Origin: Clostridia bacterium
Lineage (GTDB): Bacteria; Bacillota; Clostridia; Oscillospirales; CAG-272
Reading direction: 5' to 3'
Assembly: GCA_017540175.1 (NCBI GenBank)
Contig: JAFYBN010000010.1
Span: 16,783 to 80,782 of the forward strand
DNA length: 64,000 nucleotides
Below, piece by piece: positions 48,886 through 61,136 of this stretch. The notes below the pieces were generated by a model. It worked only from the letters and a program-made list of their open reading frames with translations. It ran no database searches and had not been told where the DNA came from. The translations under genes and the position numbers were made by a program. Position 1 is the first letter of the stretch. Every line of letters begins with the position of its first letter.

Positions 48886-49274
48886 AGGACGCCGCCGTGA
48901 TCTGCGCGACGGGCGTCTGTGTCCTGTTCGCCCTTCTCATCGTCCGCGAGGTCCGCAAGGACTGGACGCCCTATCTGCTGCTCGCCGCCGCCCTGCTCTT
49001 CGCCGCGCTGACCCTGCCCGGCGTGCGGGAGATCGTATCCTTCGCCCGGGAGCTTGAGTCGTCGGTCAGGGCGGTCGGGGACGGGGAGGTGACCGGGATC
49101 GTGCTGCGCGCGCTCGGCATCGCGTGGCTGACCTCCGCGGCCGCCGAGCTCTGCCGCGCCTCGGGCGAATCCTCCGTCGCGGGATGGATCGAGACTGCGG
49201 GGCGGGTGGAGCTGATCGCGCTTTCCCTGCCCCTTCTAAAGGAGCTGCTCGCGGCGGCGGGGTTCGCGGGATGA
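48882..49274 (+). CDS. spoIIIAD: Stage III sporulation protein AD
   Basis: Four-TM ~130-aa protein. GTG start overlapping the spoIIIAC stop (GTGA). LRALGIAWLTSAAAELCRASGE. Confidence 0.8.
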   Translation: MKDAAVICATGVCVLFALLIVREVRKDWTPYLLLAAALLFAALTLPGVREIVSFARELESSVRAVGDGEVTGIVLRALGIAWLTSAAAELCRASGESSVAGWIETAGRVELIALSLPLLKELLAAAGFAG

Positions 49275-50431
49275 AACGGGGAGCTCTCTTCTGCGCGGCA
49301 CTGCTCCTCTGCCTCCTGCCCCGCGCCGCTTTCGCGGCACAGGAGCCCGAGGGACGCCGTGAGCTTGTCTTTGAAGCACAGGACGTCGACCCATCCGCCT
49401 CGTGGGACGCGGTGCTGGACGCTTTGCCCGAGGAAGAACGAGGGGAGTTCGGCGATCTTGCCTACCTCTCCTCATCCGCGGGTAACGCGGAAAAAACGCT
49501 CACCGCTCTGCGGGAGAAAACGGGCCTCGCGTGGCTCTGGGAAAAGCTCGCCGCCGCCGTGCGGGACGCGTTTCGGCAGCTTTTTCCCGCGGCGCTTCCC
49601 CTGTTCGCGTCCGTTCTGCTCTCCGCCGCGGCGCAATTCGCGATCCCCTCCGAGGCGATGAGCGATGCGCTCGGCAGGATCCTGCGGCTGTATCAGGCGG
49701 TCGCGATCTTCTCCCTTGCCGCAGAAGCGCTCGCGCTTGCGAAGAACGTGCTTTCCGTGATCTGCGGGGTCATGGAGCTGATGGTCCCCGTCATGGAGGG
49801 CGCGGCGCTGTTCGGCGGTTCGCTGACGGAGAAAACGGTTGCGGCGGCGGGGATGGCGCTCGCGGCGACGCTGGTGAACGAGACCGCGGCAGGCGTTCTC
49901 GTGCCGGTCACGGGACTCTTGCTCGGGCTGACGGCGGCGGAGGCGGCGTGTGGCATGTTCGGGGGACTCGCGGAGGCGGTGAAAAAGATCCTCCTCCGGC
50001 TGTGGCAGATCGTCACGCTCGCCGCCTCGTTCCTGCTCGGCATGCAGACGGTCATCGCGCGCTCGGCGGACACGCTCGGGCTGAGGGCGGCAAAGCTCGC
50101 CCTGTCGTCCTTTCTTCCGGTTGCGGGAGGCGCGGTCGCAGAGGCGTTTTCCACGCTTCGCTCCGGCGCCGTCATGCTCAGAAGCGCCGCGGGGGTCGGC
50201 GGCATTCTCGCGCTTCTTCTGCTGCTCCTCCCCGCGCTCGTACCGCTCGGCGTCATACGGCTCTTTTTTTCCCTCGCCCGCTTCACCGCGGACGCGCTCG
50301 GGCTGAAGGAATCCGCGCACATGCTCGGCGGTGCGGAGGGCGCGGCGGAGTTTCTCGCGGGATTTGTGTTCTATGCAGGGATCATGTTCTTCCTCGCGCT
50401 CGCGGCGTTTGCCGCGGGGGCGGCAGGATGA
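49271..50431 (+). CDS. spoIIIAE: Stage III sporulation protein AE
   Basis: Signal peptide plus a polytopic membrane domain (SSFLPVAGGAVAEAFSTLRSG). ATGA overlap with spoIIIAD. Confidence 0.85.
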   Translation: MKRGALFCAALLLCLLPRAAFAAQEPEGRRELVFEAQDVDPSASWDAVLDALPEEERGEFGDLAYLSSSAGNAEKTLTALREKTGLAWLWEKLAAAVRDAFRQLFPAALPLFASVLLSAAAQFAIPSEAMSDALGRILRLYQAVAIFSLAAEALALAKNVLSVICGVMELMVPVMEGAALFGGSLTEKTVAAAGMALAATLVNETAAGVLVPVTGLLLGLTAAEAACGMFGGLAEAVKKILLRLWQIVTLAASFLLGMQTVIARSADTLGLRAAKLALSSFLPVAGGAVAEAFSTLRSGAVMLRSAAGVGGILALLLLLLPALVPLGVIRLFFSLARFTADALGLKESAHMLGGAEGAAEFLAGFVFYAGIMFFLALAAFAAGAAG

Positions 50432-50499
50432 GGAAAACCGGAGCGGCCGCCGACGCGTTTCAGAAAACAAAAGCGGCGGACGCAACAGGAGGCGAGCCG

Positions 50500-50952
50500 A
50501 TGAATTCCTTTGTCACTTCCCTGCTCGCCGTCGCCGCGCTCGCGGAGCTCGCCGGGGCGCTCTCCCCGCCGAAGGCGAGGGATCCGATCCGGCGCATTGC
50601 GTTCCTCGCCGCCCTGCTCGTTCTGATCGCGCCGATCCGCGCCCTGTACGAAAACCGCGAAGATCTGCTTTCGCGCACCGCCGATTTGCTGGATACGGAT
50701 TTGGCGTTCGATCCCGCCTCCGCGGACTGCAGGCTGACCGCGGGGGTGATCTTCCGCTGTGCCGCAGACAAATGGAAGATCGCGGCAGAGCGGGTGAAGA
50801 TCGTATTCACCGAGGAAGGCGGAGCCGTGCGCGCCGTGCGCGTCGAGATCAAAAACTGCCCCTACGCGATCCGCGCGGAGCTCGAAAAAGAACTGCGGGC
50901 CGCGCTGTCGCCGGACGGAGGGGTCGAAATCGTCGTTCTGGGAGGGAGGTGA
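50500..50952 (+). CDS. spoIIIAF: Stage III sporulation protein AF
   Basis: Position and N-terminal hydrophobic segments. AGGAGG 8 nt before the ATG at 50500. An alternative ATG at 50428 overlaps the spoIIIAE stop. Confidence 0.65.
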   Translation: MNSFVTSLLAVAALAELAGALSPPKARDPIRRIAFLAALLVLIAPIRALYENREDLLSRTADLLDTDLAFDPASADCRLTAGVIFRCAADKWKIAAERVKIVFTEEGGAVRAVRVEIKNCPYAIRAELEKELRAALSPDGGVEIVVLGGR

Positions 50953-50958
50953 AATCCT

Positions 50959-51336
50959 GTGAAAAAACTGGGACGAAACGCGTGGATCCTCATTCTGCTC
51001 GGTCTGCTCGGGGCGCTGTTGCTCCTGCTCGGCGGCCTGCTCGGCGGCGGGGGCGGGGAGGAGGACGCGGACTACGCGGATTATCTCGAACGGCGCGCGC
51101 GGCGGCTGTGTCTGAGCATTGACGGCGTAAAGGAAGCGGAAGTCTTTCTGACCCTCGAGCGCGACGTGAAAACGGGCGGCTTCTCCGATTCACAGACGCC
51201 GAATCCCGCCGTCCGCGGCGTCGCGGTCGTCTGCACGAACGGGGACGCGCCGCGGATCCGGAAAGCGGTGACGGAGCTGCTCTCCGCCGCGCTCGGCATC
51301 CCGTCCAGCCGCGTGCGCGTAGCAGGAAACGGATAA
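50959..51336 (+). CDS. spoIIIAG: Stage III sporulation protein AG (short form)
   Basis: N-terminal TM and a C-terminal VRGVAVVC...IRKAVTELLSAALGIPSSRVRV block like SpoIIIAG. GTG start with a GGAGGGAGG RBS. Confidence 0.75.
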   Translation: MKKLGRNAWILILLGLLGALLLLLGGLLGGGGGEEDADYADYLERRARRLCLSIDGVKEAEVFLTLERDVKTGGFSDSQTPNPAVRGVAVVCTNGDAPRIRKAVTELLSAALGIPSSRVRVAGNG

Positions 51337-51570
51337 AAGGGCGCGGTGGCATAAGCGACACCGCGTGCGCGTAGCGGGAAACGGATAAAAGGGCGCGGCA
51401 GCATACGCGACGCCGCGTGCGCGTTGCGGGAAACGGATAAAAAGGCGCGGCAGCATACGCGACGCCGCGTGCGCGTAGCGGGAACCGGATAAAAAGGCGC
51501 GGCGGCATAAGCGACGCCGCGTTCGCGTTGCGGGAAACGGATAAAAAAACGCGCGGCGGCATAAACGGAG
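51311..51570. repeat. Five tandem copies of a 52-bp repeat (period exactly 52)
   Basis: Unit starts at 51311, 51363, 51415, 51467 and 51519 (GCGTGCGCGTAGCGGGAAACGGATAAAAGGGCGCGG..GCATA.GCGAC.CC). Copy 1 contains the last 26 nt of spoIIIAG, including its stop codon. Confidence 0.9.
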
Positions 51571-51614
51571 CCGAGCGCGCATAGAATGGAGCGAAACTGA
51601 ACCCGGAGGTGCTT

Positions 51615-52205
51615 ATGAAAGAAAAATGGAGCCGTTTTCTTGAAAAATGCCGCGCAGTCGCGAAAAAGGCGGGCGCGCGCGGCGCGATCGCGGTCTGCGC
51701 GGTGCTGATCATCGGCGGAGCGGTCGCTCTGAACTTAATTCTCGCGGACAAGGAAAAGCCGAACCGTCTCATGGTCGATCTCTCAAAGCCCGCGGACGAC
51801 GCCGCGCTCCAGGTCGGCGAGGAGCAGGACGAAGAGCTGAATGCCGGGGACGCGATCGACACCTTCGCGTCCATCACGCTCGAGCGGCGTCAGGCGCGGG
51901 ATGAGGCGCTCGAGGTGCTGAAAACCGTGGCGGACAGCGAAACCGCTCTTGCCGAAGCGAAAAACGCGGCGGGCGTGGAAATCAGCCGCATCGCGTCGGG
52001 AATGGAACGGGAGGCGAACATTGAGGCCCTGATGCAGTCGAGGGGATTCATGCCCTGCGTGGCGGTGCTGTCCGATACCGGGTGCAGCGTCATCGTCGGA
52101 ACGGAAGGACTGATGCAGAGCGACGTCGCGCAGATTTCGGAAATCGTATGGGAGCAGGCGGGCATCTCGCCGGAGAATCTGAGGATCATCGAGAAGAAGC
52201 CGTAA
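51615..52205 (+). CDS. spoIIIAH: Stage III sporulation protein AH
   Basis: N-terminal TM, acidic linker and a C-terminal YscJ/FliF-like region (FASITLERRQARDEALE...VAVLSDTGCSVIV). GGAGG RBS. Confidence 0.8.
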   Translation: MKEKWSRFLEKCRAVAKKAGARGAIAVCAVLIIGGAVALNLILADKEKPNRLMVDLSKPADDAALQVGEEQDEELNAGDAIDTFASITLERRQARDEALEVLKTVADSETALAEAKNAAGVEISRIASGMEREANIEALMQSRGFMPCVAVLSDTGCSVIVGTEGLMQSDVAQISEIVWEQAGISPENLRIIEKKP

Positions 52206-52478: not shown

Positions 52479-55400
52479 TCAGTTCTTCGCGGGAGGCAGG
52501 GGCGGGTCCTTCGGAAGCTCCATTACGTCCTCCGCCGCGGGAAGTCCGCCGAAGAACATGTCGTAGAGCCAGCCGAACAAAGCGGATGAGGTGTTTTTCA
52601 GGATCTCGGTCAAATCCAGCTCCACCATGAGTTCCATGGCGGGCGTCAATTCGAGGTTTTCCGCCTGGGGATCCGCGGCGGAGCCCATCAGCGGGAAGGA
52701 GAACTTCAGACTGTTGGCTTTCATCCAGAATCCTATCGCCTTTTCGGTCTTATCCGGATTGTCGTGGACGTATGCGCCGCCCGCGCCCGTCAGCTCGGTC
52801 AGATACTTTTCGACGATCTCGGCTTTCTTGATGTCGGCGTCCGCCTTCATCCAATACTCCTTATTGCCCGCGACCACCGAATATTGATGGGACAGCTTCT
52901 GGTCGCCGAGGTCGATCTTCGCCCTCTCGCCGAGATTCTTGCCGAGGAAGCGGTTCAGCGCGCTGTCCTCCCCGAGTTTTTTGTTGATGAACGCGCTGAT
53001 CTTCGGCCCGATCTCGTTTTTGAATTTCGGGCTGTCCAGCCACTGCTTGAACATCATGCCGGCGGCGATCTTCAGCGCCGTCACCGTCAGGTCCTTGAAC
53101 GCCGCCATGACCGCGCCGTAGAAGTCGTTCTCGCCCTTCTCGAGGCTGAGAAGATAGTTGTTGAATACGGCGAACACGAAGTACCCGCCCATGATCGTGC
53201 AGGCGTATTTGATCTTTGCCGGGTCTGCCATCCCGGAGGACGCGAGCCAGCTCACGCCGTCCGAAACGCCGCCCGAGACGAAATTGTCCCCCGCGTTCTT
53301 GATCTGATCGTAGATCTCGAGTTTTTTCGGGTCGAATTTCGTGCCCCAGACGATGTTCACGCCGACCTCGCCCAACGCGTTCACCGCGACGTCCTTCGCC
53401 GGGGTGATGATCGCCTCAAGCGGTCCGGTGTACGCCGCGACCACGTACGAGAACGCGCAGTCGCCGATCCATTTGACCCATTCGAGCCCCCACACCGTCC
53501 AGTCGAGGGCATTCGCCGTCCACTGATCCTTCGAGTGCTGTTCCGTCCAGAACTTCATGTAGGCGCGCACGATGTCCTTTGACATCAGGCGCAGCTCCCA
53601 CGTCGAGATACGGCACGTGTCGCCCGCGGCGATCTTCTCGAGCTGTTCGAGGTTGTACGCCTTCTGTTCCGGCAGGGAGAATTTTTCGATCCGCTCCCGG
53701 GTCTTTTCGTATTCCTTCTCCCACGCCTCCATCGGGTCGATATCCTTGCCGCGGAGCCTCAGCGGGACGTCGACGCGGTATTCCCGCGCGCCGACCGTAC
53801 ACCGGATCGGCAAAACCGTCAGGAAGAACATGCCGTCCTCGGGCTCCCACAGGCGGGAGTTCGGCTCAAAATCGCAGATGTGCTTTCTGTTGAACACGCT
53901 GAAGCTGACCTTGTACCGGTACTTTTCGGCGATATTCTCTTCCTCTTCCGCAGGGGCGCCCCTGCCGTCCGCGCCTCTGAGCTGTTCGCAGGAGAACTGC
54001 ATGCCCGCGGGGTCGACGAGTGTTCGGTCTTCGCCCTTCACGGCGAGGGTGAACGTCATTTCACTGACCTGCCACGGGTTGTCGAGCCCGCCCGCGTTTT
54101 CATTCTCATACGCCTGCACGCGGATGTATTCGATCCCGTTCTTCTCCTCCGCGGCGCGGGAATCGATTGTCAGACCCTCGGGCCAGAGCGTGACGCCGAT
54201 CCAGCCCGTAAGGGGTTCCTTTTCCCCGTCGACCTTCACGCGGAAGCCGAAGGTCTTGTTCCGGGGCTTCGCGAACAGGCCGCGCGCCGTTTCGGGCGCG
54301 GTGCGGTTCTTCACGAGCAGCCGGTAGACAGCGGGCTGCCCGGTCTTCTCGAAGGAGACGTCGAAGCCGTCTTCCCGGTCCGCCTCGAAGTCGGCGAGCT
54401 CGGGAGCCCTCGGCGCGTCGACGACCGCGAAGGCTGCCGTATAGGTGAAGCCGTCGCCCGGGATCATGTCGAAGGACCAGTTTTCGCCGAGCAGGGCGGA
54501 GCCGCCGCCCGGTTCCGCTTCTTCGATGAATCTGAGGCTCGGTCCGTCCACAAGGCGGAAGACGACGCTGTTTGTGAACTGCCCGCCCTCGCCGTCATAG
54601 ATAAAGCGGATCGCCGCCGTGTCGTTTTCATTGTTTTCGGGGACGCTGACCGTCGTTTCGCAGTACCGCCCGGCGAGGAGAGTGCCGTGGATGATCATGC
54701 CCTCGCCCGCGGCGCGGATGTTCGCCGTGAGATCATCCCGGTCCGTCTCTTTTCCGCCCGAGACCTCCGCCATGCGGGCGCGGATCTTCACGGGTTCCCC
54801 GCCCCGGCGGATCGCGTCGCCGAAGTCCTTCTGGACGTACATTTTATAGCTCTTTCTCTTCTTTTGATCCCCGTTCTGACCGGAGAGGGCGGCAGCCGCC
54901 GCGATGCCCGCAACCGCGCCGCCCACGCTGACCGCGACCGCGACGGGAACCGAGACGCCGCCGGAATCGCCGCCCGTCCCCTCGACGATCTCGCTTGAGA
55001 CGGTCACGCCGCCGTCCTCGCCGGGGGTGTTTTCCGCGTTCTGGGTCACGCTCTCGTATTCGAAATCCTTCAGGATCACGGGCTCTTCCCACTCGATCAC
55101 AAAATTCGAGGGCGTGGTCAGGTATTCGGCGGCGTTCAGGGCGAGATAATCCGATTTGACCGAAAAATGGCGGTCCAGATAGCCCTGGTATTTTTCCGCG
55201 TGCTTCTCGGGTTTGTAGTCGTTCAAGAAGAAGCGTCCCGTGCCGATCTCGAAGCAGGTCTTGGCCGACGCGACGAAATGGACGTTCGGAATCCCCTCGA
55301 TCCGGAAGACGCGCAGCAGCCAGATGATCTCCTTGTACCCGAACGCGCCTTCGTCGTTTTCATATTCGTCGTACAGATGAAGACTCATGAGGGTGCTGCC

Positions 55401-55925
55401 GTCTTCCTCCTCGGTTATCTTCAGGGGATCCGCGATCTCGTTTTCAAGGCTCGTGCGCCAGGAAAGATTGCCGGGGGTTTTGCCGCTCATTTCGACGTCC
55501 AGCTTTTTCTTCCAGTCCTCCACGGTACCCGCGAACGATTCCATCTCGTCTTCGATCGCGTTGATGTAAATCCGGGTCCCGCCTTCTATGGACTCGGAGC
55601 CGACGTAAAGCGTCTCGTCTTCGTAGTCGTACCCGAAGACGGCGGACTCGGGGAGCATGGGGAGCGTTACGCGGGCTCTCTGTTCGATGTACTCTCCCTT
55701 TCCCTTGACATAGCCTTCCAAATCCACGAAAGCGTCAAAGTAGAGCTTCTTCTCCCACAGTGTCCTCCCGCTGATTTCTTTGTCCGTATACGCCTCGGTG
55801 TAGGCGTCTCCCGTTGTAAACTGCTTATACGGATACGGGCGGATCTCATCCGCCGCGGCCGGGAAGCAGAGCGCGGACAAAAGCATTCCAACGAGCGCGA
55901 GCCATGCGAAAACACGCTTTTTCAT
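52479..55925 (-). CDS. Large (1148 aa) signal-peptide-bearing membrane protein of unknown function
   Basis: Signal peptide (WLALVGMLLSALCFPAAA), a central TM (VPVAVAVSVGGAVAGIAAAAAL) and hydrophobic C-terminal segments. AAGGAGG RBS. No recognisable domain. Confidence 0.8.
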   Translation of the reverse strand: MKKRVFAWLALVGMLLSALCFPAAADEIRPYPYKQFTTGDAYTEAYTDKEISGRTLWEKKLYFDAFVDLEGYVKGKGEYIEQRARVTLPMLPESAVFGYDYEDETLYVGSESIEGGTRIYINAIEDEMESFAGTVEDWKKKLDVEMSGKTPGNLSWRTSLENEIADPLKITEEEDGSTLMSLHLYDEYENDEGAFGYKEIIWLLRVFRIEGIPNVHFVASAKTCFEIGTGRFFLNDYKPEKHAEKYQGYLDRHFSVKSDYLALNAAEYLTTPSNFVIEWEEPVILKDFEYESVTQNAENTPGEDGGVTVSSEIVEGTGGDSGGVSVPVAVAVSVGGAVAGIAAAAALSGQNGDQKKRKSYKMYVQKDFGDAIRRGGEPVKIRARMAEVSGGKETDRDDLTANIRAAGEGMIIHGTLLAGRYCETTVSVPENNENDTAAIRFIYDGEGGQFTNSVVFRLVDGPSLRFIEEAEPGGGSALLGENWSFDMIPGDGFTYTAAFAVVDAPRAPELADFEADREDGFDVSFEKTGQPAVYRLLVKNRTAPETARGLFAKPRNKTFGFRVKVDGEKEPLTGWIGVTLWPEGLTIDSRAAEEKNGIEYIRVQAYENENAGGLDNPWQVSEMTFTLAVKGEDRTLVDPAGMQFSCEQLRGADGRGAPAEEEENIAEKYRYKVSFSVFNRKHICDFEPNSRLWEPEDGMFFLTVLPIRCTVGAREYRVDVPLRLRGKDIDPMEAWEKEYEKTRERIEKFSLPEQKAYNLEQLEKIAAGDTCRISTWELRLMSKDIVRAYMKFWTEQHSKDQWTANALDWTVWGLEWVKWIGDCAFSYVVAAYTGPLEAIITPAKDVAVNALGEVGVNIVWGTKFDPKKLEIYDQIKNAGDNFVSGGVSDGVSWLASSGMADPAKIKYACTIMGGYFVFAVFNNYLLSLEKGENDFYGAVMAAFKDLTVTALKIAAGMMFKQWLDSPKFKNEIGPKISAFINKKLGEDSALNRFLGKNLGERAKIDLGDQKLSHQYSVVAGNKEYWMKADADIKKAEIVEKYLTELTGAGGAYVHDNPDKTEKAIGFWMKANSLKFSFPLMGSAADPQAENLELTPAMELMVELDLTEILKNTSSALFGWLYDMFFGGLPAAEDVMELPKDPPLPPAKN

Positions 55926-56073: not shown

Positions 56074-56102
56074 TTGCAATCGGCGCAGAGATATGTTATA
56101 AT
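56074..56102 (+). promoter_or_regulatory. SigmaA-type promoter TTGCAA-N17-TGtTATAAT for tRNA-Leu
   Basis: TTGCAA 56074-56079, 17 nt, TATAAT 56097-56102. The tRNA starts 9 nt later. Confidence 0.7.
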
Positions 56103-56110
56103 GCTGACAT

Positions 56111-56190
56111 GCGGGTATGGCGGAACTGGCAGACGCGACGGATTTAGGATCCGTTGGGCAACCGTGCAGGTTCAAGTCCTGTTACCCGCA
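56111..56190 (+). tRNA. tRNA-Leu (anticodon UAG), CCA not encoded
   Basis: Acceptor GCGGGTA/TACCCGC, D-arm GCGGAACTGGCAGACGC, anticodon arm ACGGA-TTTAGGA-TCCGT, long variable arm, T-arm with TTCAAGT. Confidence 0.85.
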
Positions 56191-56255
56191 TTTTGAGCGG
56201 GGAACGGGACCCCGACGGGTGCGTAGGCACCCATGACCGAGCCCGCAGGCGAGAA

Positions 56256-56279: not shown

Positions 56280-56366
56280 TGCAGATTCCGTTCGCGCAAA
56301 GGCGCGTGTATCCGTCGACTCGGTTTCAGGTTTTATGACATATAAATCCAAAAAGGAGGTTCCCCC

Positions 56367-57173
56367 ATGTCCGACGACAAGAAGAAATACCCCTGGATCA
56401 AAAGTATCTTCTCCTCAAGGAAGAGAAAGTCCGTCGAATGCGTTTACGCCGGTCCCGAGATCATGAAGCAGCGGGCCGGACGGACCGAGAAGGTTTACGC
56501 GGGTCCTCCGCCGAGAGTGGAAAAGCCCGTGTACGCCGGTCCGGAATCCTTCGGCCAGAAAAAAAAGGATCCTCCTCCCTCCGTCGAGGGCGTATACGCA
56601 GGCCCGGAGTTCTTCGGGATCAAATCCGCCGAGGAGCCGCAGAAGCCGGAAGAACCGGTGATCGAAGAGGTCTATGCGGGACCCGAGTTCTTCGGTTTCA
56701 CGGACGAGCCGGACGGAGAAGCGGAAGACATCGACGCGCCCGATGTTGAAGAAAACGCGGAAGATGCGTCGGACACGGAAGACGCGCCGGAACCGGATGA
56801 CGCACCGGAGCCGGACGGCGGCGCGGAGAACGCCCCCTCCGGAGAAACCCCGCCCCCTCCGCCCCGCCCCGACCGCCTGCCCGAGTCCATGATGATGGCG
56901 GTTTACGCGGGACCGCAGTACTATAATCCCCGCCCCGATTCGAACATCGGCATGTTCGGCATCCCGGTCCCCGCCGCTCCCCCCTCCGAAAAAGCCGAAT
57001 CCCCTGTACCGGGCGACGGCACGCGATGCCCGTTCTGCGGCGCGAAGCGGATCGAGAGCTCGAAATTCTGCACGGAATGCGGCGCGGTTCTTCCCCCGCC
57101 GAAGCCCGACGCTGACGGAAGCGAAGGCGCGCAGGCCGGAGACGACAAAAAGGAACAGGGGACGGATTCATGA
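56367..57173 (+). CDS. VYAGP-repeat, Pro/Glu-rich protein with a C-terminal zinc ribbon
   Basis: AAAGGAGG RBS. Six VYAGP motifs (V at residues 26, 43, 55, 76, 102, 179). CPFCGAKRIESSKFCTECG zinc ribbon. Confidence 0.75.
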   Translation: MSDDKKKYPWIKSIFSSRKRKSVECVYAGPEIMKQRAGRTEKVYAGPPPRVEKPVYAGPESFGQKKKDPPPSVEGVYAGPEFFGIKSAEEPQKPEEPVIEEVYAGPEFFGFTDEPDGEAEDIDAPDVEENAEDASDTEDAPEPDDAPEPDGGAENAPSGETPPPPPRPDRLPESMMMAVYAGPQYYNPRPDSNIGMFGIPVPAAPPSEKAESPVPGDGTRCPFCGAKRIESSKFCTECGAVLPPPKPDADGSEGAQAGDDKKEQGTDS

Positions 57174-58216
57174 AATACGCGGCGGTTCGCGAAGACTTTC
57201 CCTATCGGCTCGATTCCTGCGTGTGGGAAATCACCCTGCGCTGCTGTTTTCACTGCGCCTACTGCGGCTCGCGCGGCGGAGAGGCGCGTGAAAACGAGCT
57301 GTCGACCGAGGAATGCCTCGACGTGGTCCGGCAGCTGGACGAGCTCGGATGCCGCAGAGTCAATCTGATCGGCGGCGAGGTCTTCATGCGGCGGGACTGG
57401 GCGGTCATTGCGGGAGCGCTGACCAGCTGCGGCATCAAGACCTGCATCATCACAAACGGCTTTTCCATGACGCCCGCCATCATCGACGAGCTGAAGCGCG
57501 TGCGCATCGAATCCGTCGCCGTCTCGGTGGACGGGGTCGCGGAGGTGCACGACGCGTACCGGCAGAAGGGCAGCTTCGAGCGGGCGATGCTCGCGATCCG
57601 CGCGCTGACCGGGGCGGGCATTCCCGTGTCCGTCATCAGCGCGCTCCGCGCGGACAACGCCCCCCGCCTACCCGAGTTCTTCGAGGTCTTGAAGACCCTG
57701 CCGATTTTCGCGTGGCAGCTGCAGGCCTGCTCTCCGATGGGCAACGCGGATCAAAACCGGATCGACGTGAAGTTCGACGCGGGATTTGTCATCCGTTTCG
57801 TGAAGAGCATCGAAAACGCCGCGCCCTTCTACGTCGGCGCGGCGGACAACATCGGTTATTTCACGCCGGAGGAACTCGACGGCGGCATACGGGGAACCAA
57901 AAACGCCGTCTTCACCGGCTGCGGCGCGGGGCTGACGGGGATCGGCATCGACAGCGTGGGCAATGTGCGCGGGTGCGAATCCATGTACGACGAGCGCTTC
58001 AACGAGGGCAATCTCCGCTCCCGTTCCCTCGCCGAACTCTGGTATGATCCGAACGCCTTCGCCTACAACCGCCGCTTCGACGAGAGCATGCTCACGGGCA
58101 AGTGCGCGAAATGTGCCTACGGCCCGATCTGCGCCGGGGGATGCCGCTCGTACAACTGGTTCACGACGGGGGCGCTTTACGAAAATCCCCTGTGCGCGCG
58201 CCGGGAGGAAGACTAA
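57170..58216 (+). CDS. Radical SAM enzyme with a C-terminal SPASM-like auxiliary cluster domain
   Basis: CX3CX2C (RCCFHCAYCG), GGE-like NLIGGEVF, C-terminal GCGAG...GCE...GKCAKCAYGPICAGGCRS. ATGA overlap with the upstream ORF. Confidence 0.85.
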   Translation: MKYAAVREDFPYRLDSCVWEITLRCCFHCAYCGSRGGEARENELSTEECLDVVRQLDELGCRRVNLIGGEVFMRRDWAVIAGALTSCGIKTCIITNGFSMTPAIIDELKRVRIESVAVSVDGVAEVHDAYRQKGSFERAMLAIRALTGAGIPVSVISALRADNAPRLPEFFEVLKTLPIFAWQLQACSPMGNADQNRIDVKFDAGFVIRFVKSIENAAPFYVGAADNIGYFTPEELDGGIRGTKNAVFTGCGAGLTGIGIDSVGNVRGCESMYDERFNEGNLRSRSLAELWYDPNAFAYNRRFDESMLTGKCAKCAYGPICAGGCRSYNWFTTGALYENPLCARREED

Positions 58217-58272
58217 ACGTTCAGGCTCCGCGCGGGACGTTTCCCGCGGCGGATTTTTGAGGAGGCGATACG

Positions 58273-58746
58273 ATGGAGACCGTGATCCGGTTCGCGCGGG
58301 AGGACGACCTCGCGCAAATCAACGAACTTCGCCGACAGGTCAACGAACTGCACGCCGCGGGAAAGCCCGAAATCTTCAGACCCTGCTTCAGCGATGAGAT
58401 GAGGGATTATCTCTATGAGATCCGAAGTGATGCAGCGTGGCAAATCATCGCGGCGGAGGCGGACGGCGCGGTCCGCGGCTACGCCACGCTTCATCACATC
58501 CAAAGGCCGGAAAATCCGGTCATGCGCCCGCGCGATTACCTCGAAATCGACGAGTTCGGGGTGGACGAGGCGTTCCGCCGCCGGGGAGTCGCCTCCGCAA
58601 TGATCGCCTTCATACGGGCCTATGCCCGGGAAAAGAGCTTTTCCCGGATCGAGCTGAACATGTGGGAGTTCAACCGGGACGCGCTCGCGTTTTACGAAGC
58701 CGTCGGGTTTTCCACGTATCGGCGGTATATGGAAATGGAAGTTTGA
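58273..58746 (+). CDS. GNAT family N-acetyltransferase
   Basis: Acetyl-CoA motif A region (FGVDEAFRRRGVASAMI) and the NRDALAFYEAVGF tail. Confidence 0.85.
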   Translation: METVIRFAREDDLAQINELRRQVNELHAAGKPEIFRPCFSDEMRDYLYEIRSDAAWQIIAAEADGAVRGYATLHHIQRPENPVMRPRDYLEIDEFGVDEAFRRRGVASAMIAFIRAYAREKSFSRIELNMWEFNRDALAFYEAVGFSTYRRYMEMEV

Positions 58747-58843: not shown

Positions 58844-59443
58844 TTACCGGAGCCGCTTTTTGATTTCGTCAAGATCCTCGAGAGCTTTCTTCAAAACGTA
58901 CGCGGCGTACGCAGCCGCGAACGACCCGACGGAGGCGATGACCGGAGCGGCGTCCGCCGTATTTTCCCAAACGAGCCGCAAAACGAACCATGCGATCCCG
59001 GCGACGCCCGACGCGATCAGAATGACCAGCGCGGCGGTGAGGAAGGTCCCGTATGTTCTGCGGCGCGGCGCGGGCGCGGCGCTCCCCTCGTTCGGCTCGG
59101 GGCGGGACGTCTCGCGCTCCTCCTCTTCTGCGGGCAGGGCGTCCTGTTGGGGTACAGCGGGGGCAGCATACGCGGATTTCGCGGCTTCCTTCGCTTCCTT
59201 TTCCGCCAGACGGCGGCGGTCGTTGATCTCGCAGATGCGGTAGAGATATTCCATGCCGGTATCCGTCACGCCCGCGCTTCTCAGGTTGCGCTCGTTCGCG
59301 GTCAGACGCCGCACCGCCGAGGAGGTGGAAACATCCGTCAGCTTGACGAACGGCAGAATGATCCGCTTGCATTTGTCACACAGTCTCGTTTTGTCTCCGC
59401 CGGAAATCTCCGTACCGCAGTTCGCGCAGCGCGCCATACCCAT
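58844..59443 (-). CDS. Zinc-ribbon protein with C-terminal TM segments, unknown function
   Basis: CANCG...CDKC at the N-terminus and two predicted TM helices near the C-terminus. A hairpin plus T-tract lies downstream at about 58761-58805. Confidence 0.65.
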   Translation of the reverse strand: MGMARCANCGTEISGGDKTRLCDKCKRIILPFVKLTDVSTSSAVRRLTANERNLRSAGVTDTGMEYLYRICEINDRRRLAEKEAKEAAKSAYAAPAVPQQDALPAEEEERETSRPEPNEGSAAPAPRRRTYGTFLTAALVILIASGVAGIAWFVLRLVWENTADAAPVIASVGSFAAAYAAYVLKKALEDLDEIKKRLR

Positions 59444-59672: not shown

Positions 59673-61136
59673 ATGAACAGCATCTTTTACGAAAAACGCT
59701 TTGACACCGGCGCGCAGACCGACATATCGGAGGACTTTACCCTGCCGGACTACCATCCTGAGATCCGACGGGTCGTCGGCGTGCGCGCCGCCGTTCTGAC
59801 CGACGGAAAATATCTGAGCGGGAGCGATCTCGAGGCGGACGGGAATGTCATTTATACGGTCGCCTACTCGGACGCGGACGGACGCCTGAACGAAATCACC
59901 GAAACCTCGTCCTTCACCGGACGGATCCCGACCGGCGCGCAGGACGCGAAGGACGACCGTTATTCCGCGGCCGACCTCATCCTTTCCGCGTCGGCAGAGG
60001 GCGTTTCGTGCAGGGTCAGCGGACCGCGGCGGTTCACGCTGTCGAGCCGGGTCCGGCTCGAGCTTTTGTCCGAGAAGCCGGTCGACCTCACGCTCGATCC
60101 GGGAAAGCTCCCGGCGGTCCGGCAGAAAACGGAGAGGACAACCACGGCCTGTCTTTCGGAAACGCACACGAGCGCGGAGGTCTCCGGAGAGATCCGCGAG
60201 CGGGAGGACATGGAGGTCGCAGGCGGGAGCGGGCAGATCTGCCTGACGGACGCGCGCGTATCCGACGGGGGAGTTTTGCTCAAGGGGGACGCGATGGTGA
60301 GCGTTCTGCTCCGCTCGCCGGAAAACGATTACACCGTCACGCGGGGACGCGCGCCGGTCGAGCTGACCATCCCTCTGCCGGAGGTGCCGGACGGGGTCGT
60401 CTGCCGCGCCGCCGCCTTCCCATCCGTCGCGCTGACCGAGCTTGAAACCTCCCCGGACGGCACGATCTCGTGGCGGATGGAATACGACGTGGAGGCGGAC
60501 GTTCTCAAATGCACGGAGTCGGAATACGCCTCGGACGCGTATTCGCCGTACGCGGAAACGGAGATCACAGTCCGTGAGACCGGGGTCGCCGCGCCCGCCG
60601 CCGCGCTGAACGGACGGCTGACGGTCTCCGCGCGGTACCATGCACGGGAGGGGGCGGAGTTCATCACGGCGTGGGGCGCCGCAGCGGCGGAGAAGATCAC
60701 GGCGTGCGGAGGCAGAGCGCGAATGAGCGGCACGGTGAAGGCGACGGTGATCTCCCGCGCGGACCGGGATTTCATTTCGGAGGAGGTCTCGATCCCCTTC
60801 CGCTACGAATGGGAGGCGCTCGAGGGGGGCGCGGGGCCCGAGGAATTCCCGCTTTCCTCGAAAAGCGCGGTGCAGGCTGCGGACATAGCGGTCAGGACCT
60901 CGGACGGGGACGAATGGACGGTCACGGCGGAGCTCGGGCTCGCGGCGGTCTGCGTCGCGACGCAGGATACCCGCGCCGTTGTCGCGCTCACGCCGGGGGA
61001 AGGCGGCGAACCCGTGAAAAAGAATCTCATCCGCGTCTATGTTCCCGAGACCGGGGAGAACGCGTGGGACGTGGAGAAGAAATTCCGTCTCGGCAAGGAC
61101 GCCGCGCTCACGGAAGGGGTTTATGTGATGGATTGA
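59673..61136 (+). CDS. DUF3794-repeat protein (SipL/spore-morphogenesis-like, no LysM seen)
   Basis: DFTLPDYHPEIRRVVGVRA is typical of DUF3794 modules. ACGGAGGG RBS before the ATG at 59673. Confidence 0.65.
   Translation: MNSIFYEKRFDTGAQTDISEDFTLPDYHPEIRRVVGVRAAVLTDGKYLSGSDLEADGNVIYTVAYSDADGRLNEITETSSFTGRIPTGAQDAKDDRYSAADLILSASAEGVSCRVSGPRRFTLSSRVRLELLSEKPVDLTLDPGKLPAVRQKTERTTTACLSETHTSAEVSGEIREREDMEVAGGSGQICLTDARVSDGGVLLKGDAMVSVLLRSPENDYTVTRGRAPVELTIPLPEVPDGVVCRAAAFPSVALTELETSPDGTISWRMEYDVEADVLKCTESEYASDAYSPYAETEITVRETGVAAPAAALNGRLTVSARYHAREGAEFITAWGAAAAEKITACGGRARMSGTVKATVISRADRDFISEEVSIPFRYEWEALEGGAGPEEFPLSSKSAVQAADIAVRTSDGDEWTVTAELGLAAVCVATQDTRAVVALTPGEGGEPVKKNLIRVYVPETGENAWDVEKKFRLGKDAALTEGVYVMD

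Follow-up and report, generated by a model that had tools for sequence, protein, structure and literature searches.

A VYAGP-repeat zinc-ribbon protein and its coupled radical SAM/SPASM enzyme: a candidate splicease-like protein-modification system of rumen and gut Clostridia

Introduction

What does a radical S-adenosylmethionine (SAM) enzyme do to a neighboring protein that carries one tyrosine-centered pentapeptide six times over? The question is raised by two overlapping genes in a 64,000-nucleotide stretch of DNA, hereafter the window, from a Clostridia bacterium (Oscillospirales; CAG-272; assembly GCA_017540175.1, contig JAFYBN010000010.1, positions 16,783–80,782). The first gene (56367–57173, plus strand, like all window features below unless stated otherwise) encodes a 268-residue protein with six Val-Tyr-Ala-Gly-Pro (VYAGP) repeats and a C-terminal zinc ribbon; the second (57170–58216) encodes a 348-residue radical SAM/SPASM enzyme. 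A preliminary description of this locus regarded the repeats as the substrate of the enzyme and the pair as a candidate undescribed system, naming the cyclophane-forming enzymes, streptide, pyrroloquinoline quinone (PQQ) and mycofactocin as analogies. In the computational analysis reported here, the Tyr-centered repeats hold as the most plausible substrate, and the pair is conserved, coupled and co-occurs in both directions of search, but the named analogies are not the closest ones, and the enzyme groups instead with tyramine spliceases and splicease-like enzymes.

Radical SAM enzymes are marked by a CX3CX2C motif, set in a partial TIM barrel, whose [4Fe-4S] cluster cleaves SAM. SPASM enzymes (PF13186/TIGR04085) are recognized by a C-terminal seven-cysteine hallmark (CX9-15GX4C...CX2CX5CX3C...C), which holds two auxiliary Fe-S clusters. 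A Val-Tyr pair is the starting material of mycofactocin, and the peptides PqqA and MftA are sacrificial precursors of PQQ and mycofactocin, respectively.

PlpX-type enzymes, in turn, excise tyramine at X-Y-G sites (PMC11414181, PMC10533398, PMC11002830). The type I spliceases PlpX and PcpX of cyanobacteria come with the partner proteins PlpY and PcpY and with Nif11 or NHLP precursors (IPR026482, PMC11002830); PlpX itself is placed in InterPro entry IPR026482 (PMC11002830). The binary (Y-less, type II) spliceases are exemplified by RhaX/RhaA, RcsX and RasX of Rheinheimera (PMC11414181, PMC11626197); they have no Y protein, and a helix in the precursor leader is the activator (PMC11414181). Labeling results indicate that splicing removes all of the tyrosine except its C1, which is joined to C1 of residue X (PMC9811515), and characterized spliceotides inhibit Ser and Cys proteases via the resulting ketoamide (PMC11626197, PMC9811515).

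Results

The repeat protein and the enzyme form a two-gene cassette

The stop codon of the repeat-protein gene overlaps the start codon of the enzyme gene in the tetranucleotide ATGA (57170–57173), as read directly in the sequence. We searched for the pair from both sides, the repeat-protein side being the one proposed in the preliminary description. On the enzyme side, one genome per GTDB species was scanned with two clade-specific peptide patterns, and 282 species representatives were found to encode a relative; the enzyme-side counts given here refer to the best 80 of them, which are almost entirely metagenome-assembled genomes (MAGs) of rumen and gut Clostridia with unreliable taxon labels, and whose orthologues are 62–77% identical to the window enzyme. 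An open reading frame (ORF) with at least two motifs ends at or overlaps the enzyme start in 73 of the 78 loci testable for an upstream ORF. When the five exceptions were re-read, four turned out to be ordinary or divergent members, giving 77/78 and leaving one locus (L042) without such an ORF. The ATGA overlap itself recurs in 27 of the 78 loci, and in most others the stop codon lies within a few nucleotides of the enzyme start. On the metagenome side, a scan with the repeat protein gave 65 loci, which are not fully independent because many come from a single set of rumen assemblies. The enzyme is present in 58 of them, directly downstream in 55; five loci end too soon to test, and the two that lack the enzyme (58/60 testable loci have it) are one-motif zinc-ribbon matches.

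Clustering of all ORFs in 81 loci revealed only these two proteins as conserved. No other ORF family occurs in more than nine of the 81 loci, and no conserved protease, exporter, RiPP recognition element (RRE; RiPP, a peptide made on the ribosome and modified after translation) or Y protein was found among them, so the earlier remark that the pair has no protease or exporter beside it extends to the family. The repeat protein and the enzyme constitute an obligate, translationally coupled two-gene cassette of rumen and gut Clostridia.

Individual loci vary in layout. One has two tandem substrate genes (L127, 4022–5805), another has one substrate gene upstream and a second, VYGGP-type one downstream of the enzyme gene (L111, 2684–4648), and in a third a gap of ~800 nucleotides separates the substrate and enzyme genes (L092, 4001–6512).

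The VYAGP motif is maintained in an otherwise variable protein

The repeat protein, our proposed substrate or precursor from its ORF, Pfam matches, homologues and AlphaFold2 model, carries its six motifs at the residues given in the preliminary description. Copy 1 (V26–P30; 56442–56456) is preceded by Cys25 and followed by copy 2 (V43–P47; 56493–56507) and copy 3 (V55–P59; 56529–56543). Copies 4 (V76–P80; 56592–56606) and 5 (V102–P106; 56670–56684) both lie within the longer string VYAGPEFFG, and the copy 5 column is invariant among aligned repeat proteins. Copy 6 (V179–P183; 56901–56915) sits in a context, MMAVYAGPQYYN, that the logo and alignment identify as typical of the last repeat in the family. 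Each copy is written in a different synonymous codon string, and the six strings quoted earlier were read again directly; they indicate that the motif is under selection at the peptide level.

Outside the repeats, only a basic N-terminal element and one to three C-terminal zinc ribbons are conserved. The N-terminal element, KKYPWIKSIF (res. 5–14; 56379–56408), is followed by a Lys/Arg-rich stretch, and an alignment of repeat proteins shows little or no variation at its Y8, P9, W10 and K12. At the other end, past an acidic, Pro-rich linker, lies the zinc ribbon (res. 221–242; 57027–57092; PF13240, E = 3.8e-6), whose C221, C224 and C235 are nearly invariant in the same alignment; the preliminary description recognized this ribbon but gave it an eleven-residue spacer, where the sequence reads CPFC-x10-CTEC. 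AlphaFold2 predicts a chain that is intrinsically disordered except for the ribbon: the mean predicted local distance difference test score (pLDDT) is 58, rising to near 90 for residues ~221–245, and KKYPWIKSIF is modeled as a weak four-residue helix with a pLDDT of ~60.

A homology search with the repeat protein returned 147 proteins, all from Clostridia MAGs or metagenomes and, where named at all, annotated as 'zinc ribbon domain-containing' or 'hypothetical'. Each of the 120 homologues listed, of 147, has between 2 and 11 motif copies. A logo of 600 repeats reads x-(M/F/I/V)-(E/M)-(C/A/G)-V-Y-A-G-P-(E/D)-(Y/F)-(F/M); its 100% for Tyr and Pro is no measurement, as the search pattern prescribed both. 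Valine precedes the tyrosine in 90% of repeats; the residue after Tyr is Ala in 97% and Gly in 3% (VYGGP), the next is Gly in 94%, and Glu occupies position +5 in 53%. Cysteine stands at position −1 in 19% of the repeats overall and in 39% when first repeats are taken alone. Across species, the repeat protein is 30–40% identical versus ~70% for the enzyme. With its variable copy number and only the motif, the YPW element and the ribbon retained, the repeat protein evolves, to judge from these alignments, in the manner of a multi-core precursor. No curated family in Pfam (bar zinc ribbons), NCBIfam or PADLOC covers it.

The association of motif and enzyme was controlled against all other reading frames. 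Among 3147 six-frame ORFs in 81 loci, with starts set at the longest possible and hence perhaps too long, 75 contain at least two copies, one per locus, and in every case it is the ORF that immediately precedes the radical SAM gene; the count among the ~3070 others is zero. A loose form of the motif pattern gives three isolated single matches elsewhere in the 64-kb window. The motif thus occurs far beyond chance, and recent DNA duplication or chance adjacency can be ruled out by the differing codons, the two-way co-occurrence and the ORF control.

A divergent sub-clade of six loci (L060, L065, L071, L074, L078 and L084), whose enzymes are 62–65% identical to the window enzyme, has substrates with VYAPPEYF, LYGGP or LYAAP sites and lacks the zinc ribbon in 6/6. 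A long N-terminal region precedes the sites in L060, L065 and L074. The YPW-type element, N-terminal in the main clade, is mobile here: as YP(K/E)N(F/Y), it follows the repeats in L060 and L065 and lies between them in L071 and L074, while L078 has an N-terminal YP element and L084 has YPRNF near its C-terminus. In L127, too, the element follows the repeats. Its occurrence 3' of the repeats in some members is the behavior expected of a position-independent docking motif. A deliberately loose [YF]P-type pattern matches 71 of the 76 upstream proteins listed.

The enzyme is a complete radical SAM/SPASM protein

The identity assigned to the downstream gene by the preliminary description stands, as do the radical SAM superfamily and SPASM assignments individually. 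PF04055 matches with E = 2.8e-25 (89.8 bits against a cutoff of 29.5), and PF13186 matches residues 251–315 with 26.8 bits against a cutoff of 21.5. The CX3CX2C motif that ligates the [4Fe-4S] cluster (C25, C29 and C32 in RCCFHCAYCG; 57242–57265) is invariant in both enzyme alignments (A1 and A3). The SPASM region (57920–58195) reads C251-x12-G264-x4-C269 ... C312-x2-C315-x5-C321-x3-C325 ... C342, with all of these positions invariant. C187, upstream, is also invariant and brings the conserved cysteines to eight with the SPASM seven, enough by count to ligate two auxiliary clusters fully. The cluster motif begins at residue 25, and the enzyme has neither an RRE domain nor a C-terminal extension.

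The AlphaFold2 model (predicted template modeling score, pTM, 0.81) matches radical SAM structures, with SuiB, PqqE and SkfB as the best Foldseek hits; sequence and fold searches of the PDB returned only generic peptide-modifying SPASM enzymes (SkfB, PqqE, SuiB, ChlB and the anaerobic sulfatase-maturating enzyme, anSME). In NCBIfam, where we considered the best 25 of 72 matches, the enzyme scores highest with TIGR04103 (nif11-class peptide radical SAM maturase 3; 230 bits, cutoff 725), followed by TIGR03913 (GDL motif peptide-associated maturase; 208 bits, cutoff 591.75). AhbD comes third with 134 bits, ahead of WgkB, StsB, NirJ, MftC and PqqE. InterPro entry IPR026482 is probably built on TIGR04103. 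In PADLOC, the enzyme resembles prokaryotic viperins (55 bits) only at a generic radical SAM level.

Tyramine spliceases and splicease-like enzymes are the nearest relatives

We ran tblastn with the enzyme against annotated plasmids and read the gene neighborhoods of the best matches. Splicease-like enzymes match with 32–36% identity (E = 1e-45 to 1e-60), whereas outside this group the best of the matches listed, among them MftC, PqqE, NirJ and TIGR04053, reach 27–29% identity and E = 6e-25 or weaker. The 'nif11-class maturase 3' of Nostoc sp. C057 (34.5% identity), a TIGR04103 member used as a proxy for PlpX (PlpX and RhaX themselves lie outside the comparison), has an upstream Nif11 precursor that ends ...IALYGLPPELF (GRGSIALYGLPPELF) and, downstream, a 71-residue ORF in the Y-protein position. 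The TIGR03913 enzyme of Burkholderia pseudomallei (35%) follows genes for DUF1842 and DUF1843 proteins that contain PMYGVG (VMPMYGVGLQEARASGDL) and TPYGVA (VTPYGVAIHQAIADGDL). In Agathobacter rectalis, the enzyme WP_015515522.1 (NZ_CP143948.1, ~209.2 kb; 35.7% by tblastn) lies directly downstream of an unannotated small ORF (L153, 3725–3931) ending in ...GPVMYGTGVRM (NLFGPVMYGTGVRM; SKNLFGPVMYGTGVRM). The enzyme on Aureibacter tunicatorum plasmid pAT1 (32.9%) is preceded by three tandem DUF1843 genes (L154, 1692–2405) whose products begin MYQVLYAAG, MYLPMYAAS and MIIQPYGAG, giving the sites VLYAAG, PMYAAS and QPYGAG, so that X-Tyr-Ala sites are not confined to the VYAGP family. In all, X-Y-G or X-Y-A precursors adjoin four of the five relatives above ~31% identity whose loci were read; the fifth is that of Tropicibacter oceani (31.4%), where the precursor was not sought.

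The enzyme aligns end to end with the splicease-like enzymes and shares blocks with them beyond the generic motifs: VWEIT, WQxQ..PMGNA, (A/G)(D/N)(N/C)IGY(F/Y) and NPxC. In a neighbor-joining tree (100 replicates, split-based unrooted bootstraps), the VYAGP clade is monophyletic (100/100), joins all splicease-like enzymes to the exclusion of PqqE, MftC, NirJ and TIGR04053 (100/100), and has the A. rectalis enzyme as its nearest sampled neighbor (83/100). This topology, which comes from thin sampling and a simple distance method, agrees with the NCBIfam ranking. By these comparisons, the nearest relatives of the enzyme are tyramine spliceases or uncharacterized splicease-like enzymes, and its clade is best described as a sister or neighboring clade of TIGR04103 rather than an equivalog.

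The sites resemble each other as well. The Plp splice tag is P-(M/L)-Y-G-L-P-I (PMC10533398), and the window motif (C/A/G)-V-Y-A-G-P-E-(Y/F)-F can be set beside the Nostoc core A-L-Y-G-L-P-P-E-L-F; as aligned, all three share a core phi-Y-(G/A)-x-P. Gly and Ala interchange after the tyrosine in the Aureibacter DUF1843 set, in the 3% of VYGGP repeats and in the second substrate of L111. On our reading of the labeling results, the residue after Tyr would take no part in the splicing reaction, so Ala at this position should be chemically compatible with it.

Further features were seen at these loci. The small A. rectalis ORF, from a species common in the human gut, resembles a spliceotide-type precursor that has escaped annotation, with a major facilitator superfamily (MFS) transporter gene downstream, and in Aureibacter a SAM-dependent methyltransferase gene follows the enzyme gene. 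Several splicease-like enzymes carry zinc ribbons of their own (L152, 2204–3679; L154, 2471–3895; L155, 2216–3838), C-terminal (CRNC...CPHC) in Burkholderia and Aureibacter and N-terminal (CPDC...CPFC) in Tropicibacter. In the window, the ribbon stands at the end of the substrate, right before the enzyme gene, an arrangement that might point to domain shuffling and to a ribbon acting together with the enzyme.

Comparison with known systems

With the type I spliceases, the window system shares a radical SAM domain and full SPASM domain alignable end to end, TIGR04103 as the best curated match, a precursor gene immediately upstream with several sites per precursor possible, and a tyrosine in a phi-Y-small-x-P context (PMYGLPI and ALYGLPPELF versus VYAGPEYF). 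Unlike them, it lacks a Y protein and a leader of the Nif11 or NHLP type, its enzyme is ~65 residues shorter and has no C-terminal extension, and Ala replaces Gly after the tyrosine. The VYAGP substrate is a disordered zinc-ribbon protein of 100–400 residues with 2–11 repeats, and the hosts are anaerobic gut Clostridia. The adjacent precursor thus carries X-Tyr-Ala-Gly-Pro in place of X-Tyr-Gly, and TIGR04103 is the best NCBIfam match at a score well short of membership. No Y-like ORF is conserved in the 81 loci as an activating partner; the YPW element, with its weak predicted helix, is a candidate for that part.

Binary spliceases, compared by their published description, likewise consist of enzyme and precursor only; internal sites in proteins can be spliced by them, and an element outside the core activates the enzyme, a part that KKYPWIKSIF could play. 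Activation by a leader helix in these systems is compatible with the YPW element and the two-gene architecture. Unlike the VYAGP proteins, their precursors are leader-core peptides of short length, which bear one or two X-Y-G sites and are encoded within RiPP multi-clusters.

The TIGR03913 systems of Burkholderia, Azospirillum and Ralstonia have enzymes 33–35% identical to ours and upstream partners with a Tyr site. The related Aureibacter locus has Y-A as well as Y-G sites, and a zinc ribbon is part of the system there too, but on the enzyme. The differences are that each partner is a folded, helical DUF1842/DUF1843 protein whose Tyr site occurs once and not as repeats, and that the enzymes have 470–490 residues with a C-terminal zinc ribbon; splicing in these systems is itself proposed from sequence. 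The window pair does not belong to the GDL-motif system proper, given its TIGR03913 score and a partner that has no Pfam match bar zinc ribbons. The A. rectalis enzyme (36–37% identity) shares with the window system a gut Clostridia host and a precursor directly upstream, and differs in a single M-Y-G site in a short peptide, the MFS transporter and a C-terminal tail of ~40 residues.

More distant SPASM systems fit less well. AnSME is, like the window enzyme, an RRE-less SPASM protein (Foldseek TM-score ~0.64), and it recognizes a short linear motif in a cytoplasmic protein substrate, as proposed for the window enzyme, but its motif is C/S-x-P/A-x-R, its product is formylglycine and its sequence is distant. 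The preliminary description had allowed that the enzyme might fall with a clade of known, unrelated substrate such as the sulfatase maturases; it does not, scoring 58 bits against the 349-bit cutoff of TIGR03942, and there is no sulfatase in the conserved unit. Against mycofactocin stand an MftC (TIGR03962) score of 122.7 versus 265 bits, Val-Tyr pairs that are internal and the absence of conserved neighbors, where that system has the MftB chaperone and other mft genes; against PQQ, a PqqE (TIGR02109) score of 99 versus 381 bits, no PqqD-like gene in the 81 loci and, beside the E-x3-Y of PqqA, a Glu at +5 in only about half of the repeats. The motif does not fit a triceptide, as its third residue is almost always Gly and the alternative (E)-Y/F-F-x triplet is not conserved, and no cyclophane maturase family appears among the best 25 of 72 NCBIfam matches. 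Sactipeptide and ranthipeptide maturases are likewise remote (StsB, 130 versus 625 bits; SkfB, 67 versus 300 bits), and Cys precedes only 19% of the repeats.

Genomic neighborhood of the cassette

A Shine-Dalgarno sequence, AAGGAGG (56353–56359), was read 7 nucleotides 5' of the repeat-protein start codon. Just upstream lies a tRNA-Leu gene with anticodon TAG (56110–56191), preceded by a good match to an extended-TG sigma-70-like promoter (TTGCAA-17-TATAAT; 56074–56102), and the cassette may be transcribed by read-through from this tRNA-Leu promoter. Downstream of the enzyme gene, a consensus scan picked up a terminator-like hairpin with a T-run (58231–58258; hairpin 58231–58248; 7-bp stem with six G-C pairs), which probably marks the end of the two-gene operon.

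A GNAT acetyltransferase gene (58273–58746; PF00583) starts 56 nucleotides past the enzyme stop codon, the position stated in the preliminary description, which counted it with the system. Its membership was not borne out: the hairpin intervenes, a search of the ORFs of the 80 other loci with phmmer gave one marginal match, and downstream genes vary between genomes (NUDIX in L001 and L004), which leaves the GNAT particular to the window genome. The window GNAT also matches HaaN, an acetyltransferase of a cyclophane RiPP, with 25 bits, probably a generic GNAT cross-similarity.

On the minus strand upstream (52479–55925), adjoining the cassette, a large ORF of 1148 residues encodes an orphan envelope protein; it has a signal-peptide-like N-terminus and a central transmembrane-like stretch and matches nothing in Pfam or NCBIfam. 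Sporulation genes flank the region at 49124–52205 and 59682–61136, encoding SpoIIIAE (PF09546), SpoIIIAH (PF12685) and a SipL/SPOCS-domain protein (PF12673); a sporulation link was considered and is unsupported because the other 80 loci do not share this synteny. A 199-residue protein encoded downstream on the minus strand (58844–59443) has an N-terminal zinc ribbon (CANCG...CDKC), a C-terminal transmembrane segment and one isolated AYAAP, and gives only sub-threshold matches, to DUF6264 in Pfam and the SepX/GlpR divisome families in NCBIfam. In L001 (6745–7398) and L004 (6749–7402), a 217-residue protein 5' of the cassette, without a Pfam match, combines an N-terminal membrane anchor with a C-terminal zinc ribbon, and the loci at large do not share it.

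Discussion

Our analysis suggests that the repeat protein and the enzyme are very probably an enzyme-substrate pair, and that the tyrosine motif is likely to be the site of modification. Since the closest relatives of the enzyme are spliceases or splicease-like enzymes encoded beside X-Y-G (or X-Y-A) precursors, the pair is probably a variant of that backbone-editing system. We accordingly describe it as a variant rather than as the wholly undescribed system of the preliminary description, although that phrase holds insofar as no curated family covers either protein.

In the mechanism that we propose, the upstream gene would supply a cytoplasmic disordered protein with a basic YPW N-terminus, several x-V-Y-A-G-P-(E/D)-(Y/F)-F sites and a C-terminal ribbon. 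The coupled, RRE-less enzyme would recognize each V-Y-A-G-P site directly, with the YPW element perhaps serving for docking or activation, much like the leader helix in binary spliceases (PMC11414181), and the zinc ribbon could be an interaction module. Radical chemistry would then excise all of the tyrosine but its carbonyl carbon (the 'tyramine equivalent', C8H9NO, −135.07 Da per site) and rejoin the backbone, so that each Val would become an alpha-keto-beta-valine (ketoamide) followed by Ala-Gly-Pro. The product would be a protein with up to six electrophilic ketoamide groups (2–11 in relatives). Because known spliceotides inhibit proteases through this group, a multivalent Ser/Cys protease inhibitor, active intact or after fragmentation, is the most economical guess for its function. 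We consider the chances about even that the reaction is tyramine excision, in a minimal binary splicease-type system that converts V-Y-A to alpha-keto-beta-valine. The same balance applies to the view that these loci define a compact class, in which a ~340-residue splicease-like enzyme without Y protein, RRE or leader peptide acts on X-Tyr-Ala up to 11 times to yield a poly-ketoamide protein. In a bolder form of the compact-class view, the strictly conserved Y-A-G-P may specify an undescribed Tyr-centered radical reaction.

Several observations weigh against tyramine excision. Ala follows Tyr in nearly all repeats, in place of the Gly of the defining X-Y-G, and such strictness could reflect a different reaction. 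Radical SAM/SPASM enzymes at 32–37% identity can differ in chemistry, and the enzyme reaches no curated NCBIfam cutoff among the best 25 of 72 matches, falling far below those of TIGR04103 (725) and TIGR03913 (592). It also lacks the C-terminal extension of 60–130 residues found in four of the five splicease-like enzymes, that of A. rectalis having ~40 residues. The assignment of the TIGR03913, Aureibacter and A. rectalis enzymes as spliceases is itself suggested by motifs in their neighbors, the tree was built from few sequences by a distance method, and the high conservation of the enzyme, with no protease or exporter nearby, would be unusual for a secreted RiPP.

The same pair could perform another chemistry at VYAGP, such as a Tyr-centered C-C or C-O crosslink, epimerization of Val, Tyr or Ala, or a Cys thioether; this is the main alternative, which we hold to be possible but rather unlikely. 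The nearly invariant Gly-Pro after Tyr-Ala hints that recognition or geometry may differ from X-Y-G splicing, the identity to splicease-like enzymes is modest and below all curated cutoffs, and the nearest solved structures are the crosslinking maturases SuiB, PqqE, SkfB and ChlB. Cys before Val, in 19% of repeats and 39% of first repeats, brings a thioether to mind, but with most repeats lacking Cys, the conserved reaction cannot be a thioether. Nor can Y-A-G form a three-residue cyclophane, since its Gly offers no beta-carbon, and if all eight conserved cysteines ligate clusters, no open cluster site would be left for sactipeptide-like chemistry, although this last argument is a weak one. 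The nearer sequence relatives in which a precursor was sought all adjoin splicease-typical X-Y-(G/A) precursors, which speaks against this alternative.

Two other views change the role of the repeat protein. It would be quite improbable, in our estimate, that the protein is a sacrificial precursor of a small Tyr- or Val-Tyr-derived metabolite or cofactor, with the repeats multiplying the yield. Homology to MftC and PqqE is detectable (123 and 99 bits), mycofactocin derives from a Val-Tyr pair, an enzyme with ~70% identity over more than 280 species looks housekeeping-like rather than natural-product-like, and excised tyramine could itself be the product. Yet the enzyme scores far below the MftC (265) and PqqE (381) cutoffs, and, in contrast to pqq and mft clusters, its surroundings conserve neither a peptidase nor an RRE chaperone nor a tailoring enzyme. 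The Val-Tyr pairs are internal and not C-terminal as MftC requires, and a conserved zinc ribbon and YPW element would be hard to explain in such a precursor. Still more doubtful is a repeat protein that is an accessory factor (an adaptor, scaffold, regulator or electron-transfer partner via CxxC...CxxC) for an enzyme whose substrate lies elsewhere. Type I spliceases do need a small non-substrate Y protein (PMC11414181), several splicease-like enzymes have a zinc ribbon fused to them, so the ribbon may belong functionally to the enzyme, and the relatives AhbD, NirJ and BlsE act on non-peptide substrates. A tyrosine motif repeated in variable copy number along a disordered chain is, however, the signature of a multi-site substrate and not of an adaptor, the motif resembles known splice sites, and the sub-clade represented by L060, L065, L074 and L071 keeps the repeats without the ribbon.

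In the literature, we found nothing relevant on the VYAGP motif or on the pairing of such repeats with a SPASM enzyme, although the clade may be included in the splicease survey of Scott et al. (Chem 2022, 8:2659). That survey is summarized as having scored the frequency of YG motifs beside SPASM enzymes in UniProt reference proteomes (PMC10849128), an approach that would miss a YAGP family found almost only in MAGs.

If the tyramine-excision reading is true, the substrate code of tyramine splicing would widen from X-Y-G to X-Y-A, and YG-keyed mining would have passed over a large clade. Engineering work seeks to place beta-amino acid or ketoamide handles in proteins (PMC11414181, PMC10533398), and for this the family would supply an enzyme that is minimal by nature and independent of a leader, together with VYAGPEYF as a tag of eight residues. 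If the chemistry differs, the pair would carry out a radical SAM reaction of a new kind, and on a motif that is very well defined. Splicing here would also give a handle on the native role of this modification, as the modified protein appears to be cytoplasmic and tightly conserved, with no adjoining export or cleavage genes. On the splicing view, the cassette would be a two-gene unit of almost housekeeping rank, kept in more than 280 species from rumen and gut Clostridia, and its product would represent an abundant, uncharacterized protein modification of these bacteria, possibly controlling protease activity.

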